Source: an uncultured Pseudomonadales bacterium (GTDB lineage: Bacteria > Patescibacteriota > Microgenomatia > UBA1400 > PJMF01). From it: a DNA stretch of 64,000 bases. Numbering within the stretch: position 1 is the first letter of the stretch; the number at the start of each line of letters is the position of its first letter. The translations under genes and the position numbers were made by a program. The notes beneath the pieces were generated by a model that was given only the letters and a program-made list of their open reading frames with translations, did not search any database and was not told where the DNA came from. This document shows positions 2,763-60,124 of the stretch, piece after piece. The stretch spans positions 29,452 through 93,451 of the forward strand of contig CAZOVA010000002.1 of the NCBI GenBank assembly GCA_964583625.1, given 5' to 3'.

Positions 2763-3530
2763 TTATTTTCCTGGAAAAAAAAGCAGAAAAATTAAAATAA
2801 TAAAACCAGTGAGAAAAAGGTATTCGTTTATAACCTGGCGGAAGAGTTTTTCTCTTAGATAGGTTTGAATAATTCCCAAAATGAGATAGAAAACTGACAT
2901 CAGCAACAGAGCAATATTCCAATTATTCATCGGGAGAAAAGAAAAAACCAAAGCAAACTCTGCCATAATTAAAGCACTAAAAAAACTTAATTGCCACAAG
3001 GTGAGACTGATCTTTTCCTCTAAATTGACAGACCAGGAGATCGTCAAGGAGAGAGGGAAATGTAGAAGAAAAATAGCTAAAAAATTGAAATAAAAAGGTA
3101 AATTGAGGGAAAAAATTGTTTGAGAACCCAAGAGGGAAATAATAATAGCAAAAAATAAAGCTGTTGCTTGAGCGGCATTGAGTAATTGAATATTTCTTTC
3201 CTTCGCCACAGAGAAAATATTGCTAGTGAGAAAAATAGAATAGGCACCTAGAACAAATAAGCCCAGAATAAAGACTAAACTCCAAAAGTTATCTGGTAAA
3301 AGGAAATAAAAGGCAGCAATTGTAAGAGAATAAAGGGTGGGAAAAGGCAGAATTAGTAACCACTCTCTCGCTTGCAGATCCTCTTTGAGAACCAAAGCAG
3401 AGATAAAATAAGTCAGAGCCCCAAAGCCTAGAATAGCAAGATAGCGCCATTCTACTGGTACCAACTGGATTAGCCAGAGTAAAACCCCTAGTAATAAGGC
3501 AAAAAAAACAAATTTTTCTCGACGACGCAT
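2763..3530 (-). CDS. polytopic membrane protein (unknown function)
   Basis: Roughly 8 predicted hydrophobic helices and no recognisable catalytic motif. Borders the long non-coding region. Confidence 0.4.
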   Translation of the reverse strand: MRRREKFVFFALLLGVLLWLIQLVPVEWRYLAILGFGALTYFISALVLKEDLQAREWLLILPFPTLYSLTIAAFYFLLPDNFWSLVFILGLFVLGAYSIFLTSNIFSVAKERNIQLLNAAQATALFFAIIISLLGSQTIFSLNLPFYFNFLAIFLLHFPLSLTISWSVNLEEKISLTLWQLSFFSALIMAEFALVFSFLPMNNWNIALLLMSVFYLILGIIQTYLREKLFRQVINEYLFLTGFIILIFLLFFPGK

Positions 3531-4386
3531 AGACTTTAATTATAGCATAGATAAATAAAAAATATTTATTGAGAGAAAAAGAAAGTAATTGTTTATTTTT
3601 AAGCCATATATTCTGTAATTATGCGTTAATAAAGACAACTAGATAAGTTTTAAACGTAAAATTCGCCATAAAAAGCTTTTCAAATTATAAATTATCTACT
3701 TTAATCTGGTTTATTTTAATTATGCATTTATATATTATTTAATATAAGCACTTTTGCTTGATTATTTTTATCTCAAAGAGGAAAAAATGTATTCAAAGAA
3801 GAGAGAGCTTCAAGGGAAAATAGCTTTTTAAAACTAGAGTCACTGGCCCGAAACTAGAAAATATAAGGACTTTTTGGTTAAAACTTCCTCAGGCTAAAGC
3901 TATTTTTTATCAGAGAGTAGGGGAGAGTGCTAAAATGACTTTTTAAAAAAAATAATTGCTAAATCAAGCTATTTTTTTGTTATAGATAATACCTTAAATT
4001 TATACTTAAGTAAAGAAAATATAACTTTGTATTAAATATTATGGTAAAGAATTTATCGGGAGCAGAGAAGAGAGGATTGTTAACTGTCTATAAATTTTTA
4101 CTAATTTAATTACCGCAAGAGAATAAACTTATTTGAGATAATCGGATAGCTTAAAGCCTGACTTTTTTTAGGGGAAATTAAAGCAATTTAATGTTTTTAA
4201 AATTTTACTTGAAAAATAAACTGAAGATAAGTTTTTGAAAGCATCCAGTATTTTAAGATATAAATAAGAATTTAAAAGTTATTTTTTTCAATCTTTGAAT
4301 AAATTTTAGGTGATGGGGACCTAGAGAGTAGGGGAAGCTGAAATTTTTCTAGGTCAACCAGAGTAAATAGACCTATAATATTTAAT

Positions 4387-4505
4387 AATGATATAGTTTG
4401 ATATAGTTTAAGTTGGGGATAATGATATAGTTTGATATAGTTAATAATGTGGAAAACTTTTAGTTTAAGTCTGGCTACGGCTTAATTGATATAGTTTGAT
4501 AGAGT
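4387..4505. repeat. three copies of a ~22-nt element, each an internal tandem of GATATAGTT(T)
   Basis: aatgatatagtttgatatagtt at 4387-4408 and 4421-4442 (identical), attgatatagtttgatagagt at 4485-4505. Gives 6 copies of the 9-10-mer within 120 nt of ORF-free DNA. Confidence 0.7.
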
Positions 4506-5301
4506 AAATTTAAATAACTATAAATATTATAGGGTCTTATTCTCGACTAGAGAGTAAATTTTACCCAGTCTCTTAGCTTGGGGAAGGAGCGAGTAAAACC
4601 CGAAAGCCTTTTAAAGCTACCAAAGTTCACGTAGTTTAAACCCAGGACGCCTTAGCTTAAACAGTGTCGCTTCAGAGAGTATTATGGATTGCATTAAATA
4701 AACATTTTATGGATAGAGAGCAGCCCAAGAAAAGGTGGGCGCTTTATAGCTCTACTCTTTATGACGAGAGGCAAGGTTTTTCCAAAGAGCTTTTTTGTGG
4801 TTTTTCCAGATTAAAAAGCCTGGAGAAGAGAGAAATAACAATGTCGCACAATATAACTTTTACGACCTATAGTCTGGAAAAACTAGAAAATAAGGCTTTT
4901 TTTAACATCGATTTTTATTGTTTGCTAACTGACTTTAATCCTTTTAGTCAAGAGATGTTTTTGAAATGACAGCCCTCTTCTCTGCTTTGACCTACATTAG
5001 TGCATCCTCTAGCCCAAGTCTCTCCAGAGGTACCAGGCTAAAATAAACAGGCTTTTAACTATAAAATGGCCCTGGCTCCCCCATTAAAGAAGTTAATTGA
5101 GAGAGGAGTTCTTATATTCCTATAAATAAAACCTTTAATTTTCAATTAAGTATATATAAATAATTAAAAATATAAAAAAATGTAGCTAAAAGGCTAGACT
5201 AAACGATGAAGGTCATCTTTTTAAAACAAAGCCGATTTTGAGACATTAGAAGGCCTTTCCAGGGTAAATTAGAGGCTAGTGGGATAGAAAAGTGTGATAG
5301 A

Positions 5302-6249
5302 ATGGGTTTTATGGAAACTAATAAGATTGACAGTGTGATTGTTTTGTTTTTGGAACATTTGGAAGTGGAGCGCAATGTTAGTCGTTTGACCATTCGTAAT
5401 TATCGTCAGTATCTACAGAAACTAGCTGATTGGTTGCAGCGTCGTCAAGTCACTAATATTACTTCTCTAGATTTAGAATTATTGCGCAAATACCGCTTAT
5501 ATCTGAGTAGACTGACTAATGATAAAGGTGAAGTCTTGTCTAAGAAGACTCAAAGTTACTATTTAATTGCTATTAGAAGCCTACTAAAGTGGCTAATAAA
5601 GAATGATGTTCCAGTCTTATCTCCAGACAAAATTGATTTGCCTAAAGCCGAGTCTTTACCCATGAGTTATACTGATGTCGATCATATCTTGAAATTACTT
5701 GAATCTCCAGATATAACTACGACTACGGGCTTAAGAGATCGAGCCCTGATGGAGCTACTTTTTTCTACTGGTTTGCGTGTCAGCGAACTAGCCGCCCTCA
5801 ATCAAGAGCAAATCAATTTAGACGGGGGAGAGTTTGGCGTCATTGGAAAAGGACGCCGACCAAGAGTGGTTTTTTTATCAGACCGGGCCAAGTTTTGGCT
5901 CAGACAATGGTTAGCCAGCCGAAAGGACGAGTGGTCTCCCCTCTTTATTCGTTTTTCCGGAAAGAAGAACTCCAATTTGCAGGATGATGGTCAAGATATG
6001 CGCCTGAGCGTCCGCAGCATTGAGAGAGTAATTGATAAGTATGTGAGAAAAAGCAAGCTCCCAGTGAAGCTTTCACCTCATGGCTTAAGACATTCTTTTG
6101 CTACCGACCTACTGAGCAATGGGGCTAATTTGCGCGATGTCCAGGAGATGTTGGGTCATAAAAGCATCGTTACCACCCAGATTTATACCCATGTCACCAA
6201 GCCACAACTGCGTCAAGCTCACAATAAATTTCATTCTCTGGAAAAATAA
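5302..6249 (+). CDS. xerD: tyrosine site-specific recombinase, XerC/XerD-integrase family
   Basis: N-terminal SAM-like domain (FLEHLEVERNVSRLTIRNYRQYLQKLADWL), LLFSTGLRVSEL, GKGRRPRVVF, HGLRHSFATDLLSNGANLRDVQEMLGHKSIVTTQIYTHV with the catalytic RHR...Y. Start may be the ATG at 5311. Confidence 0.85.
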   Translation: MGFMETNKIDSVIVLFLEHLEVERNVSRLTIRNYRQYLQKLADWLQRRQVTNITSLDLELLRKYRLYLSRLTNDKGEVLSKKTQSYYLIAIRSLLKWLIKNDVPVLSPDKIDLPKAESLPMSYTDVDHILKLLESPDITTTTGLRDRALMELLFSTGLRVSELAALNQEQINLDGGEFGVIGKGRRPRVVFLSDRAKFWLRQWLASRKDEWSPLFIRFSGKKNSNLQDDGQDMRLSVRSIERVIDKYVRKSKLPVKLSPHGLRHSFATDLLSNGANLRDVQEMLGHKSIVTTQIYTHVTKPQLRQAHNKFHSLEK

Positions 6250-6429
6250 TCTATCTCAACTTAAATATATTTAGTTCTATAAAAATATATTTAATCATAT
6301 CAATCTATAAATAGTCAGATATATCTATATTTTTTTAATCAAAAAATTAAATACTAATGAAGTTTTACTTCTCTCCTCTCCCCTACCAGATTAAAATTGG
6401 AAAAATTGCTTTATTCAAAGGCAAAAGGG

Positions 6430-6502
6430 TGGACCTTAGGGGGATCGAACCCCTTACCTCTTCTATGCCATAGAAGCGCTCTACCAAGTGAGCTAAAGGC
6501 CC
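6430..6502 (-). tRNA. tRNA-Ala (anticodon GGC)
   Basis: Reverse complement folds as a cloverleaf: acceptor GGGCCTT/AAGGTCC with the G3:U70 Ala identity pair, D-arm TAGCTCACTTGGTAGAGC, anticodon stem CTTCT/AGAAG with loop ATGGCAT, T-arm AGGGGTTCGATCCCCCT. No encoded CCA. Confidence 0.8.
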
Positions 6503-6827
6503 GCCAAAAAGATCAAGGACTTATTATAACATAATTTCTAGTTGAACGGGCTAGTTTTAGGTTTTTGCTCTGGTAGAAGATTAATGATTATCTTATTAGC
6601 CTATCCTTTGTCAACAAAAAGGAGCTAAATAGGACAAATTTTAATTAATATATTTTCTATAAGTCTTTAAACTAGCAAACAAAAGAATTAATTGCTAATT
6701 AAAATTATATAAATATTTGCCCTTTTTATCAATGTTTTACCTCATTTTAGCCTGGAGAAAACTTTAGAAAAAAATCCAAAATCTAAAACTCAAAAAATTG
6801 GGAGGAATTTAAGTTATAAAATCTTCT

Positions 6828-12055: not shown

Positions 12056-12270
12056 AGTGGTGGAGTTTAACATAAAGAAAAACAAAAAGCAAGCAGTGTT
12101 TTATAGTTTGAGGAGCTAAAAAGGCCAAAATGAGCCCTTTTAGGTCGTTTTTTGGCTACTCTTATCTTATAGGATGCTCAGCTAAGAAACCGATAAGTTA
12201 GAAAAACAGTTTTTATTATAAGGACTTTAGCTAAGGATCCTATAATATTAAAAACATTATAAATTATTTT

Positions 12271-58821: not shown

Positions 58822-60124
58822 TCTCTTACCTTTGGGCGGAATGGCGGAATGGTCACCAGCTGAACAATTGGAATTTGAAAGATGGAAGAAAATTATTGAT
58901 GAAACTTATGCTTTATATGGTTTTTCTAAAATAGAAACGCCAATTTTGGAGAGAGAAGAAGTTTTACTAGCAAAAGCTGGTGGCGAAACAGAAAAACAAA
59001 TTTATCGTTTCAAAAAAGGTGATGCTGATATCGCTTTGCGCTTTGATCTAACTGTTCCCTTAGCCCGGTATGTCGCTTTACATCAAAATGAGCTACAGTT
59101 TCCGTTTCGGCGACGGACAATTGGTCAAGTTTACCGGGGGGAGCGAGCTCAGAGAGGTCGTTTTCGTGAGTTTTATCAAGCAGATGCTGATATTATTGGT
59201 CGCGAGACTTTGGACTGGCAGTATGATGCAGAGGTGATTGGCTTGATTGCGGCCACTTTTTCTCGCTTGGCCATTGGAGATTTTCTTATTTCTATCAATA
59301 ATCGAAAAATTTTATTAGGCTTTTTGCAGGCCTTAAAAATTCCCGATGAAGCGGAAGTGATGCAACTTTTGGATAAGGCAGATAAAATTGGTGAGAAAAA
59401 AATGCGTGCAGAATTGTCCCTTTTGAGATTGAATGCTTTAGAAATTCGAAAAATTGTCCAGTTTGCTCAAATTCGAGGATCATTAACTGAAGTCATACAG
59501 TCTTTATTACGTTTGGACTTGGATAATCCGACTTTCAATCAAGGTTTGGCAGAATTAGAAGCTGTGGGAAAATTGCTACCAGCTCTAGGTTTGAGTGAAG
59601 ACAACTATCAATTTGATTGCGCTATCATTCGGGGCTTGGATTATTATACGGGAACTATTTTTGAGACCAAACTCAAAGAAGCTCCAGAATTAGGTTCAGT
59701 TTGCTCTGGTGGGCGTTATGACAATCTAGTGGGCAGTTTTGCCAAAACTAAAATGCCCGGAGTGGGTATGTCAATTGGTCTAACTAGACTTTTTTTTCAA
59801 CTAAAAGAACTAAATTATTTTCCTTTGACCCAAAAGACTGAAAGTCAAGTGATTATTTTACCTCTGACGACAGATTTGCCCGCTGTTTTGAGGGCGGCAA
59901 CTGCTTTGCGGGCAGCACAAATAAAAACAGAGATTTATTTACAAACGGCAGGGATGAAAAAGAAAATGAAGTATGCTGCCGACCTAAATATCCCCTACTC
60001 TCTTATTATTGGTGATGAAGAGATTGCCCAAAATAAAGTTGCTTTTAAAAATATGCAAACTGGCGAACAAAAACTTCTTAGTTTACGTCAAGTAATGGCA
60101 GAAATTAATGCTGGAGAAAATTAA
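58802..60124 (+). CDS. hisS: histidine--tRNA ligase
   Basis: Class II motifs (YRFKKGDADIALRFDLTVPLARYV, QIYRGERAQRGRFREFYQAD, GGRYDNL), C-terminal anticodon-binding domain. Confidence 0.95.
   Translation: MTKKIINLLPLGGMAEWSPAEQLEFERWKKIIDETYALYGFSKIETPILEREEVLLAKAGGETEKQIYRFKKGDADIALRFDLTVPLARYVALHQNELQFPFRRRTIGQVYRGERAQRGRFREFYQADADIIGRETLDWQYDAEVIGLIAATFSRLAIGDFLISINNRKILLGFLQALKIPDEAEVMQLLDKADKIGEKKMRAELSLLRLNALEIRKIVQFAQIRGSLTEVIQSLLRLDLDNPTFNQGLAELEAVGKLLPALGLSEDNYQFDCAIIRGLDYYTGTIFETKLKEAPELGSVCSGGRYDNLVGSFAKTKMPGVGMSIGLTRLFFQLKELNYFPLTQKTESQVIILPLTTDLPAVLRAATALRAAQIKTEIYLQTAGMKKKMKYAADLNIPYSLIIGDEEIAQNKVAFKNMQTGEQKLLSLRQVMAEINAGEN

Follow-up and report, generated by a model that had tools for sequence, protein, structure and literature searches.

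The stretch analysed here, hereafter the window, is a 64,000-nucleotide (nt) segment of contig CAZOVA010000002.1 (assembly GCA_964583625.1) from an uncultured bacterium of the GTDB lineage Microgenomatia, UBA1400, PJMF01. A gap of 1771 bases (3531-5301) separates a DUF5656 membrane-protein gene from a gene for a Xer-family tyrosine recombinase. The original prediction had described this gap as free of open reading frames (ORFs) and offered three explanations, namely, a large structured RNA, the decayed cargo or iterons of an integrated element, and a dif or regulatory region for the Xer recombinase. Comparison with relatives identifies the gap as a conserved, vertically inherited, non-coding and cis-acting locus, probably for chromosome maintenance, in a Pacebacteria-like Microgenomates clade belonging to the candidate phyla radiation (CPR). 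It contains a 30-bp palindrome, here called D, and a consensus DnaA box, neither of which appeared in the original prediction.

The emptiness of the gap is real. The ORF list of the window holds no ORF of at least 120 amino acids (aa) inside 3531-5301, and on the identical public contigs L001-L003, too, gene callers annotated nothing in this stretch. The sole ORF of more than 60 aa, which the original prediction had likewise distrusted, crosses D, has no Pfam match and is not conserved at that place in related loci; on these grounds it was judged not to be a gene. A tblastn search of the gap with 1143 upstream ORFs of relatives gave matches confined to conserved DNA motifs, and small ORFs 3' of D, searched across relatives, yielded no conserved peptide. 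The gap is not a decayed or mis-called gene because the relatives' ORFs match only where the DNA itself is conserved, and a pseudogene or missed gene was ruled out; the ordinary coding gene in relatives that the original prediction had allowed for does not exist there. The GC content is 0.22-0.31 across 3501-4600 (200-nt windows) compared with ~0.37 window-wide.

Relatives were collected by a Xer-protein scan using one genome per GTDB species, which gave 80 loci with Xer proteins 58-76% identical to that of the window and with records labelled Pacebacteria, Paceibacterota, Woesebacteria or Patescibacteria. The order TPR, YebC, DUF5656, gap and Xer is retained in 65 species-level loci. The gap of relatives measures 0.95-2.8 kb and is longer only with inserted genes. 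The comparison with related genomes that had been proposed earlier found the right 0.9 kb (~4320-5260) conserved beside the same neighbours; in this module, short motifs keep their order and strand at roughly constant spacing. The collinear, strand-specific order in relatives is R-B-Y-(W,K,C)-P-D-T-rich-G (Table 1), and R, B, P and G do not occur outside the gap within the 64 kb.

Table 1. Features of the gap and its borders in the window.
Feature	Position	Strand	Description
DUF5656 membrane-protein gene	2763-3530	-	Pfam PF18900 slightly under cut-off; left border of the locus
Left spacer	3531-4320		AT-rich, lineage-specific; includes the presumed DUF5656 promoter region
GA/CCAGG edge	4323-4368	+	Purine-rich GA motif AGAGAGTAGGGGAAG, then CCAGAG element; left edge of the module
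Y elements	4370-4378 (GACCTATAA, inverted); 4527-4535 (TTATAGGGT)		Inverted repeat bracketing the R repeats and the DnaA box
R repeats	4389-4407, 4423-4441, 4487-4505	+	Dyads TGATATAGTT-TGATATAGT (table form TGATATAGTTTGATA)
DnaA box B	4448-4457	- (TTTTCCACA; also written TTATCCACA)	Consensus box; + strand TGTGGAAAAC; 6 nt past the second R dyad
P motif	4595-4605	+	AAAACCCGAAA, also written AAAACCCGAA (table form AAAACCCGAAT); unique in the window
101-aa ORF	4664-4969	+	Sole ORF >60 aa in the gap; spans D
Imperfect 30-nt inverted repeat	4784-4813 / 4870-4899		Encloses D
D, dif-type core	4840-4869 (arms and spacer 4841-4868)	+	ATGTCGCACAA-TATAAC-TTTTACGACCT; 12-6-12 palindrome
T-rich tract	4893-4965	+	3' of D; weaker than in relatives
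W motif	5033-5040	+	CCAGGCTA
G motif	5228-5258	+	AAAGCC ... GGCCTTT hairpin (AAAGCCGATTT; table form AAAAAGCCGWTTTTGRGGC), conserved loop start GATTTTGAG
K (TGCAAGAATAA) and C (CGTGAAAA)			Present in many relatives; missing in the window
Xer-family tyrosine recombinase gene	5302-6249	+	Pfam PF00589 and PF02899; right border of the locus; presumed partner of D

D has the layout of a tyrosine-recombinase core site: inverted arms of 11-12 bp, TATGTCGCACAA and TTTTRCGACATA, are separated by the asymmetric 6-bp spacer TATWAC, and 10-11 of the 11-12 consensus arm positions match as reverse complement. In a position matrix from 72 genomes, 22 of the 24 positions of the core (GTCGCACAATATWACTTTTRCGAC) are at least 95% invariant; the core is flanked by TAT and RTA, and conservation ends sharply on both sides. 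The core is near-invariant although the Xer proteins are just 58-76% identical to that of the window. D has a single copy in the window, and all loci with enough upstream sequence carry it on the Xer-sense strand, 0.45-1.5 kb 5' of the Xer gene, this distance being exceeded only where genes have been inserted. An exact-match scan of metagenomes for D retrieved at least 120 further contigs, some of 0.75-1.19 Mb, with one match per retrieved stretch in each of 120 contigs. Complete genomes with D include BOKX01000001.1, BOKR01000001.1 and JACKFW010000001.1 and the JGI records Ga0210044_10000002, Ga0233431_1000002 and Ga0209542_10000005. A Xer relative is encoded downstream on the same strand in 63 of the 64 contigs with at least 2.5 kb downstream, and DUF5656 is encoded upstream in 56 of the 58 with at least 2.5 kb upstream.

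The 315-aa Xer protein of the window has its best NCBIfam matches in XerC (236 bits) and XerD (230 bits), both under the equivalog cut-offs; its best solved structure is XerD 1a0p (E = 6e-38), and its sequence shows the R, K, HxxR, H and Y motifs of catalysis. No second Xer gene was found in the window or in any related locus. The proposal that D is the dif-type target of this Xer, encoded 0.46 kb downstream, is well supported by its position and conservation, and this was the part of the original prediction that fared best: the search for a dif-like site returned D as a candidate, upstream of Xer and on the same strand. That D is the dif of a single-recombinase system has fair support, and a single recombinase species is proposed to act on it because the two arms are nearly identical.

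Known Xer systems offer partial parallels. In the XerS/difSL system of streptococci and lactococci and the XerH/difH system of Helicobacter and Campylobacter, a two-arm core site lies close to its own recombinase gene, as it does here, and the near-palindromic arms of D and the one Xer gene per locus fit such single-recombinase systems. The Xer of the window is not a XerS (122 bits, where the cut-off is 267), and its relation to XerH is only distant (E = 1.7e-14). The sequences of difSL and difH are unrelated to D. The dif site of E. coli is GGTGCGCATAA-TGTATA-TTATGTTAAAT. Like E. coli XerCD/dif, D has an 11-6-11 architecture, is unique in the available sequence and is extremely conserved across species, and the E. 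coli XerC arm shares ..CGCAnAA with the left arm of D. Unlike in E. coli dif, the arms of D are alike rather than XerC- and XerD-specific, and unlike in canonical dif, palindromy is outer rather than inner, so the criterion of complementarity between positions 7-12 and 17-22 (PMC3025954) is marginal.

Additional arms occur near D in some relatives. About 14 loci (including L024, L044, L052, L054, L056, L068, L070, L077 and L080) have an extra single ATGTCGCACAA arm 150-340 nt 5' of the Xer start, and an inverted arm lies 200-230 nt past D in L011, L014, L015 and L048, co-occurring with an inverted G hairpin in the first three. The extra arms and the variable DNA between D and Xer suggest Xer autoregulation and/or past recombination (inversion or integration) at D. 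A mobile element at D was considered and rejected: D had no match among 2.9 million viral contigs, matches of the R 15-mer there were chance single matches, and the genes between D and Xer in L046, L047, L049, L050 and L053 have no mobile-element domains.

The second conserved unit lies upstream of D and combines the R repeats with the DnaA box B. Three R dyads were found compared with 0.04 expected, with none elsewhere in the 64 kb; they are 80% A+T and C-free. The original prediction had read this part as a tandem GATATAGTT array, in place of which stand three separate dyads, TGATATAGTTTGATATAGT, at 4389, 4423 and 4487. The sequence TGATATAGTT occurs on the + strand in 63 of the 66 related gaps and on the - strand in 4, with 1-4 dyads per locus, and in 85 of 95 metagenome contigs. 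R is a candidate unwinding element, iteron or polar protein-binding array. B is the sole TTWTCCACA match in the window, where four further matches fit the looser TTWTNCACA. TGTGGAWAAC (table form TGTGGAWAACT) occurs at the same place in ~59 of the 66 loci, and the box mostly follows R at a distance of 0-20 nt. Across the modules, TTWTNCACA has 70 exact matches in 61 of 66, nearly all of them B, compared with a median of 3 for permuted patterns. One-mismatch boxes are densest at 4400-4900 of the window (7 per 500 nt).

The arrangement resembles the left half of E. coli oriC: in both, short AT-rich direct repeats directly precede a box on the same strand, TGTGGATAAC in E. coli and TGTGGAAAAC in the window. 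The same 10-mer, as TGTGGATAAC, directly follows AT-rich 13-mers in a stretch found once per E. coli chromosome; this stretch is the left end of oriC, with the box as R1. The genes gyrA, gyrB and rnpA, which are typical of origin regions, lie 1.5-8.4 kb away. Unlike E. coli oriC, the locus has a different repeat sequence, with a 10-nt period, no demonstrated further cluster of DnaA boxes, no adjacent dnaA, dnaN or gidA, and no skew minimum. A small repeat array is typical of origins (Chen et al. 2020, PMC7111523). Iteron plasmid origins (pSC101, R6K and F) share with the locus the variable-copy repeats, a DnaA box, AT-rich DNA and a nearby recombinase with its site; unlike them, the locus has no Rep initiator gene and is chromosomal, vertically inherited and set among housekeeping genes.

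The direction of replication was approached through GC skew, measured as G versus C at four-fold degenerate sites. Genes were split by strand and by side of the module because the raw skew of the window follows gene orientation. In the 66 species loci, the skew left of the module was +0.03 for + genes and -0.43 for - genes, and right of it -0.07 and -0.44, respectively; the 120 metagenome contigs gave 0.00 and -0.31 on the left and -0.06 and -0.37 on the right. Nearly every locus has the same pattern without a switch, and in each of the 57 long loci the Xer-sense strand has a positive total skew. Only one model fits the four values, in which the Xer-sense strand and the leading strand are G-rich on both sides. 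Because the four-fold-site skew keeps its sign across the locus, the module is excluded as a bidirectional origin or terminus, which leaves an ordinary mid-replichore position or one-way replication with coincident origin and terminus. Complete UBA1400 Microgenomates genomes (Ch65, Collierbacteria and Beckwithbacteria) have a monotonic cumulative GC skew with strong G/C strand disparity, for which an adjacent origin and terminus or one-directional theta replication was proposed, neither being located (Kadnikov et al. 2020, PMC7143001). Judged on record names, the related loci appear to belong to the order UBA1400; one of them, L077, is record PJMF01000003.1, the source of the PJMF01 family name, and has no skew switch at its module.

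Our preferred explanation, to which we assign a probability of about 45%, is that the module is a chromosome-maintenance locus in which a dif site and an origin-like unit are combined for one-way replication. Xer would recombine the palindrome as a dif-type site. The AT-rich, C-free TGATATAGTT dyads and the consensus DnaA box, ~0.4 kb upstream of D, would form the origin-like unit, a reading adopted because their order and strand relation are as in the 13-mers and R1 box of E. coli oriC. Replication would start at the module, run in the Xer sense around the chromosome and end at the module, so that origin, terminus and dif would coincide; this one-way course is proposed because there is no change of skew sign at the locus and because the skew of related Microgenomates is monotonic. 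The Y, W, P and G motifs and the T-rich tract may be further protein-binding or unwinding elements. That the R and DnaA-box unit is the origin, with the chromosome copied in the Xer sense and origin, terminus and dif coinciding, has moderate support. The wider claim, that the main chromosome of the clade is replicated one way from a ~1-kb plasmid-like module of dyads and a single strong DnaA box ~0.4 kb from a dif with a single Xer, is put forward tentatively.

The nearest precedent is found in the chromids of Pseudoalteromonas, in which one-directional replication was shown by coverage and 'dif next to ori' is its signature (Xie et al. 2021, PMC7858055). There, as proposed here, dif adjoins the origin (ori2-dif2) and the skew has no switch. 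The two differ in that dif2 and ori2 are 4-27 kb apart on a secondary chromid with a plasmid-type RepA initiator, compared with 0.4 kb on a main chromosome here, and in that the Pseudoalteromonas case was shown by coverage, whereas ours is a proposal.

Several observations weigh against the preferred explanation. A single DnaA box is clearly conserved, and weaker boxes (217, of which 70 are the exact boxes, compared with a permuted 95th percentile of 181) are not significantly enriched; dnaA is absent from the window and from within ~6 kb of the locus in 83 related loci. The strand disparity of the window is weak, at 0.058 overall and near zero at 5-42 kb, and the one published genome of the PJMF01 family is reported to have a normal V-shaped skew (PMC7143001). 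As for D itself, palindromy resides mainly in the outer arm positions, with just 3-4 of the 6 inner pairs (positions 7-12 and 17-22) complementary; compared by eye, its right arm TTTTRCGACAT is unlike TTATGTTAAAT, although a conserved XerD-type arm is among the published criteria for dif (PMC3025954, PMC7858055), and only about half of the positions of D match E. coli dif. The poor inner palindromy and the unlike right arm would fit a divergent single-recombinase system. D does not lie at a GC-skew shift point in the 66 species and 120 metagenome loci, which is compatible with a dif only if replication is one-way or the dif lies away from the terminus.

The strongest rival takes up the last of these options. 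D would be a dif, or another recombination or attachment site, accompanied by ordinary regulatory DNA in mid-replichore, with a normal dnaA-linked origin elsewhere; the upstream motifs would play no part in initiation and would be promoters, operators, a DnaA-titrating or -regulated element (datA- or DARS-like) or sites of transcription control by DnaA. The lone conserved box without a significant cluster, the lack of a nearby dnaA and the normal skew reported for the PJMF01-family genome (PMC7143001) all favour it, and the absence of a skew switch is equally expected in mid-replichore. R also contains TGnTATAGT, which is extended -10-like, and the Y pair upstream of gyrB and the W motif upstream of gyrA indicate that some motifs may be general regulatory sites. 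However, known dif sites lie at the terminus and function poorly when displaced (PMC3025954), which would make a mid-replichore dif unusual in itself; ~0.9 kb of dense, ordered and orientation-locked motifs far exceeds the need of a promoter, and R, B, P and G are confined to the gap within the 64 kb. We consider this rival less likely than the preferred explanation.

A lower probability still is given to a + strand non-coding RNA gene of ~0.4-0.9 kb, for instance a large structured RNA of a new kind, an RNA whose repeated motifs act as a protein sponge, or a primer RNA of the ColE1 type, in which the palindrome and a GA/CT hairpin would be RNA hairpins. The strand-specific, collinear motifs with roughly constant spacing would suit such a gene, as would the purine-rich + strand upstream of D. 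In most relatives inspected, a GA-rich/CT-rich hairpin of differing sequence followed by TTTT lies 20-60 nt before D, where the window has the imperfect inverted repeat. The outer pair of D is U-A in 19 cases, U-G in 16, C-G in 3 and C-A in 1, as in a paired stem, and the + strand of the window folds with z = -2.4. Against these stands the Rfam scan that had been suggested earlier, whose models included ROOL, GOLLD, OLE, HEARO, raiA, 6S, RNase P, tmRNA and SRP: it returned only tRNAs from the window and 11 related loci and no credible match in their gaps at gathering or permissive E-value thresholds, and the best sub-threshold match was a spurious miRNA of 29 bits compared with a cut-off of 70. 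RNAalifold, applied to the segment from P to D of 40 loci, recovered only a 5-bp D stem, although alignments of the variable parts are poor and could miss weak structure; no compensatory change occurs in the 5 core pairs of this stem. Averaged over 66 loci, the folding z values are small and show no strand preference (+ strand, -1.22; - strand, -1.27; Wilcoxon p = 0.87), and single-sequence folds likewise gave no strand-specific structure. No intrinsic terminator was predicted, and a scan for promoters and terminators found no excess over shuffled controls. R varies from 1 to 4 copies, W and Y occur in both orientations and G is inverted in some loci; varying copies and flipped motifs would be the habits of protein-binding DNA sites. 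A DNA function is preferred over an RNA function because there is no folding beyond D, the z values are equal on both strands, the R copies vary and W, Y and G change orientation, and the large structured RNA of the original prediction loses its support on the same grounds.

Very little probability is given to a gene-less relic of an integrated small plasmid or integrative element: the iteron-like repeats, DnaA box, AT-rich DNA and recombinase with its site (as a multimer-resolution site) have the classic iteron-plasmid layout and some relatives have extra genes between D and Xer, but the position and housekeeping flanks are the same in 65 species and in the metagenome contigs counted above, neither a rep gene nor a rep pseudogene is present, D is missing from the viral contigs, and the motifs show strong purifying selection and not decay. 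A recent plasmid insertion is largely refuted. Ancient capture of a plasmid replicon as a chromosomal origin merges with the preferred explanation. Of the integrated-element explanation in the original prediction, the iteron-like or unwinding-element-like character of the dyads beside a DnaA box stood, and the decayed cargo did not, given the 65-species synteny and the lack of a decayed gene.

The remaining motifs of the module are conserved to different degrees. The GA/CCAGG edge, which precedes the repeats, has the consensus 'G.g.Agag ... aCCAGg ... aggg' in 66 aligned modules. Y (TTATAGGAC) lies 17-25 nt past the DnaA box in relatives, mostly 18, and TATAGGA is 20-fold enriched in modules; an inverted pair of TTATAGGRY also occurs at 12167 (+) and 12237 (-) in the intergenic region upstream of gyrB. 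W (ACCAGGCTA/TAGCCTGGT) is 14-19-fold enriched in modules on both strands, at about two copies per module, and CCAGGCTA recurs at 6748 (-) in the intergenic region upstream of gyrA. A cluster of CCWGG (Dcm-like) methylation sites was considered for the latter motif and rejected: CCWGG is 3-fold enriched, but the true motif is the longer ACCAGGCTA. With these copies of Y and W near gyrB and gyrA, it may be that general regulators bind some of the module motifs. P (AACCCGAA) is found in 62 of 66 gaps, never on the opposite strand, ~190 nt 5' of the palindrome. In L007 and L008, a unit of two dyads followed by AAAACCCGAA (R-R-P) is tandemly duplicated from D-740 to D-330. The T-rich tract of ~150 nt has a T minus A excess of +0.2 to +0.3 (fraction of a 40-nt window) from D+40 to D+200 in the mean of 66 loci; neither its sequence nor any peptide is conserved in these loci. 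G (AAAAAGCCG) is found in 48 of 66 gaps, between D+160 and D+440, and is inverted in L011, L014 and L015.

Four metagenome contigs with the same exact D (L206, L207, L210 and L216) represent a more distant lineage, with Xer proteins 50-54% identical. Their R repeats lie nearer to D (D-210 to -270), and AACCCGAA follows D (+163 to +187) instead of preceding it. The module order is not fixed across the whole distribution of D because R and AACCCGAA are shifted in these contigs.

The dispersed repeats of the original prediction needed small corrections. The 13-mer AGAGAGTAGGGGA occurs at 3912-3924 as described, and its second copy is one base off, at 4323-4335; a third exact copy (59991-60003, - strand) falls within the histidyl-tRNA synthetase gene, and three exact copies in 64 kb are unlikely by chance. 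A near copy, CTCTCCCCTACC, stands in reverse sense at ~6370-6385 beside tRNA-Ala (6428-6502). The three copies of AGAGTAAAT are real and start at 4360, 4501 and 4551 rather than at 4352, 4502 and 4550; the window holds five compared with 0.83 expected.

The left border of the locus has a history of its own. DUF5656 of the window is 47% identical to a + strand gene of L033, and, judged against 61 other loci, the gene is inverted only in the window and in those four closest relatives that have a complete gap (L004, L007, L008 and L010). The orientation of YebC is unchanged in this subclade, and the YebC stop codon lies 1 nt from that of DUF5656. The YebC/TACO1 homologue (2204-2761) is short, at 185 aa, with its second Pfam domain matched over positions 1-54 of 160 only; as relatives have proteins of the same length, the shortness is typical of the clade and no truncation in this genome. 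Positions 1-850 of the gap gave no blastn match to L004-L010, and 0.8-1.6 kb of unconserved AT-rich DNA separates the DUF5656 start codon from the conserved module in the inverted subclade. The left spacer is best read as a fast-evolving promoter region and spacer left by the DUF5656 inversion because unconserved AT-rich DNA at this place is specific to the subclade with the inverted gene. It contains TGCGTTAATAA at 3622-3632, and TGCG(T/G)TAATAA occurs 1-5 times upstream of DUF5656 in the inverted subclade only (L004 3494-3614; L008 3336-3507; L010 3482-3867; several intergenic sites in L007). This sequence may serve the lineage as a promoter or operator element. L007 additionally carries it elsewhere, with several copies near the locus ends.

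Variation was also observed within and around the module. L047 (3618-5629), L049, L050, L046, L053, L060 and L030 carry inserts of 1-4 kb, either in the stretch from D to Xer or in that from DUF5656 to D; the inserted genes are of unknown function, one with a lysyl-oxidase domain and one with a PTPS-related membrane domain, and the locus seems to be an insertion hot spot. In L056, three tandem ~47-nt units (TTTTTTGACAATTTGTGTTTGGCAAATTTTTATGAATCG) lie ~400-560 nt after D in a very AT-rich 1.4-kb stretch between D and Xer. L002 is a strain variant with a 13-nt deletion corresponding to 5123-5135 of the window, in an AT-rich part, and L003, a Logan contig, ends inside the gap at the equivalent of window ~3655. 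The sequencing runs SRR36594267, SRR8925755 and SRR36594269 contain this organism. For about 16 of the 80 GTDB loci the contig end falls inside the module, that of L038 (position 8) 7 nt before D; such ends may arise from repeats, population variation or recombination at D.

The locus illustrates how, even in a compact genome, a long intergenic stretch that looks empty can consist of densely packed cis-acting DNA and be neither an RNA gene nor junk. We know of no demonstration of one-directional replication of a main bacterial chromosome. The proposal made in 2020 for some Microgenomates was based on GC skew alone, without a candidate locus (PMC7143001). The module is a concrete conserved sequence with which one-way replication can be tested and, if the preferred explanation is true, it would give a physical location to the hypothesis that origin and terminus lie close together, put forward for the monotonic skew of UBA1400 (PMC7143001). 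No description of a dif site or oriC of CPR bacteria was found in the literature searched. Even on a conservative reading, D is a previously undescribed dif-type site that is highly conserved and widespread in CPR genomes, and it can help to curate and orient metagenome-assembled genomes, to detect elements that use D for integration and to study chromosome-dimer resolution in minimal cells.

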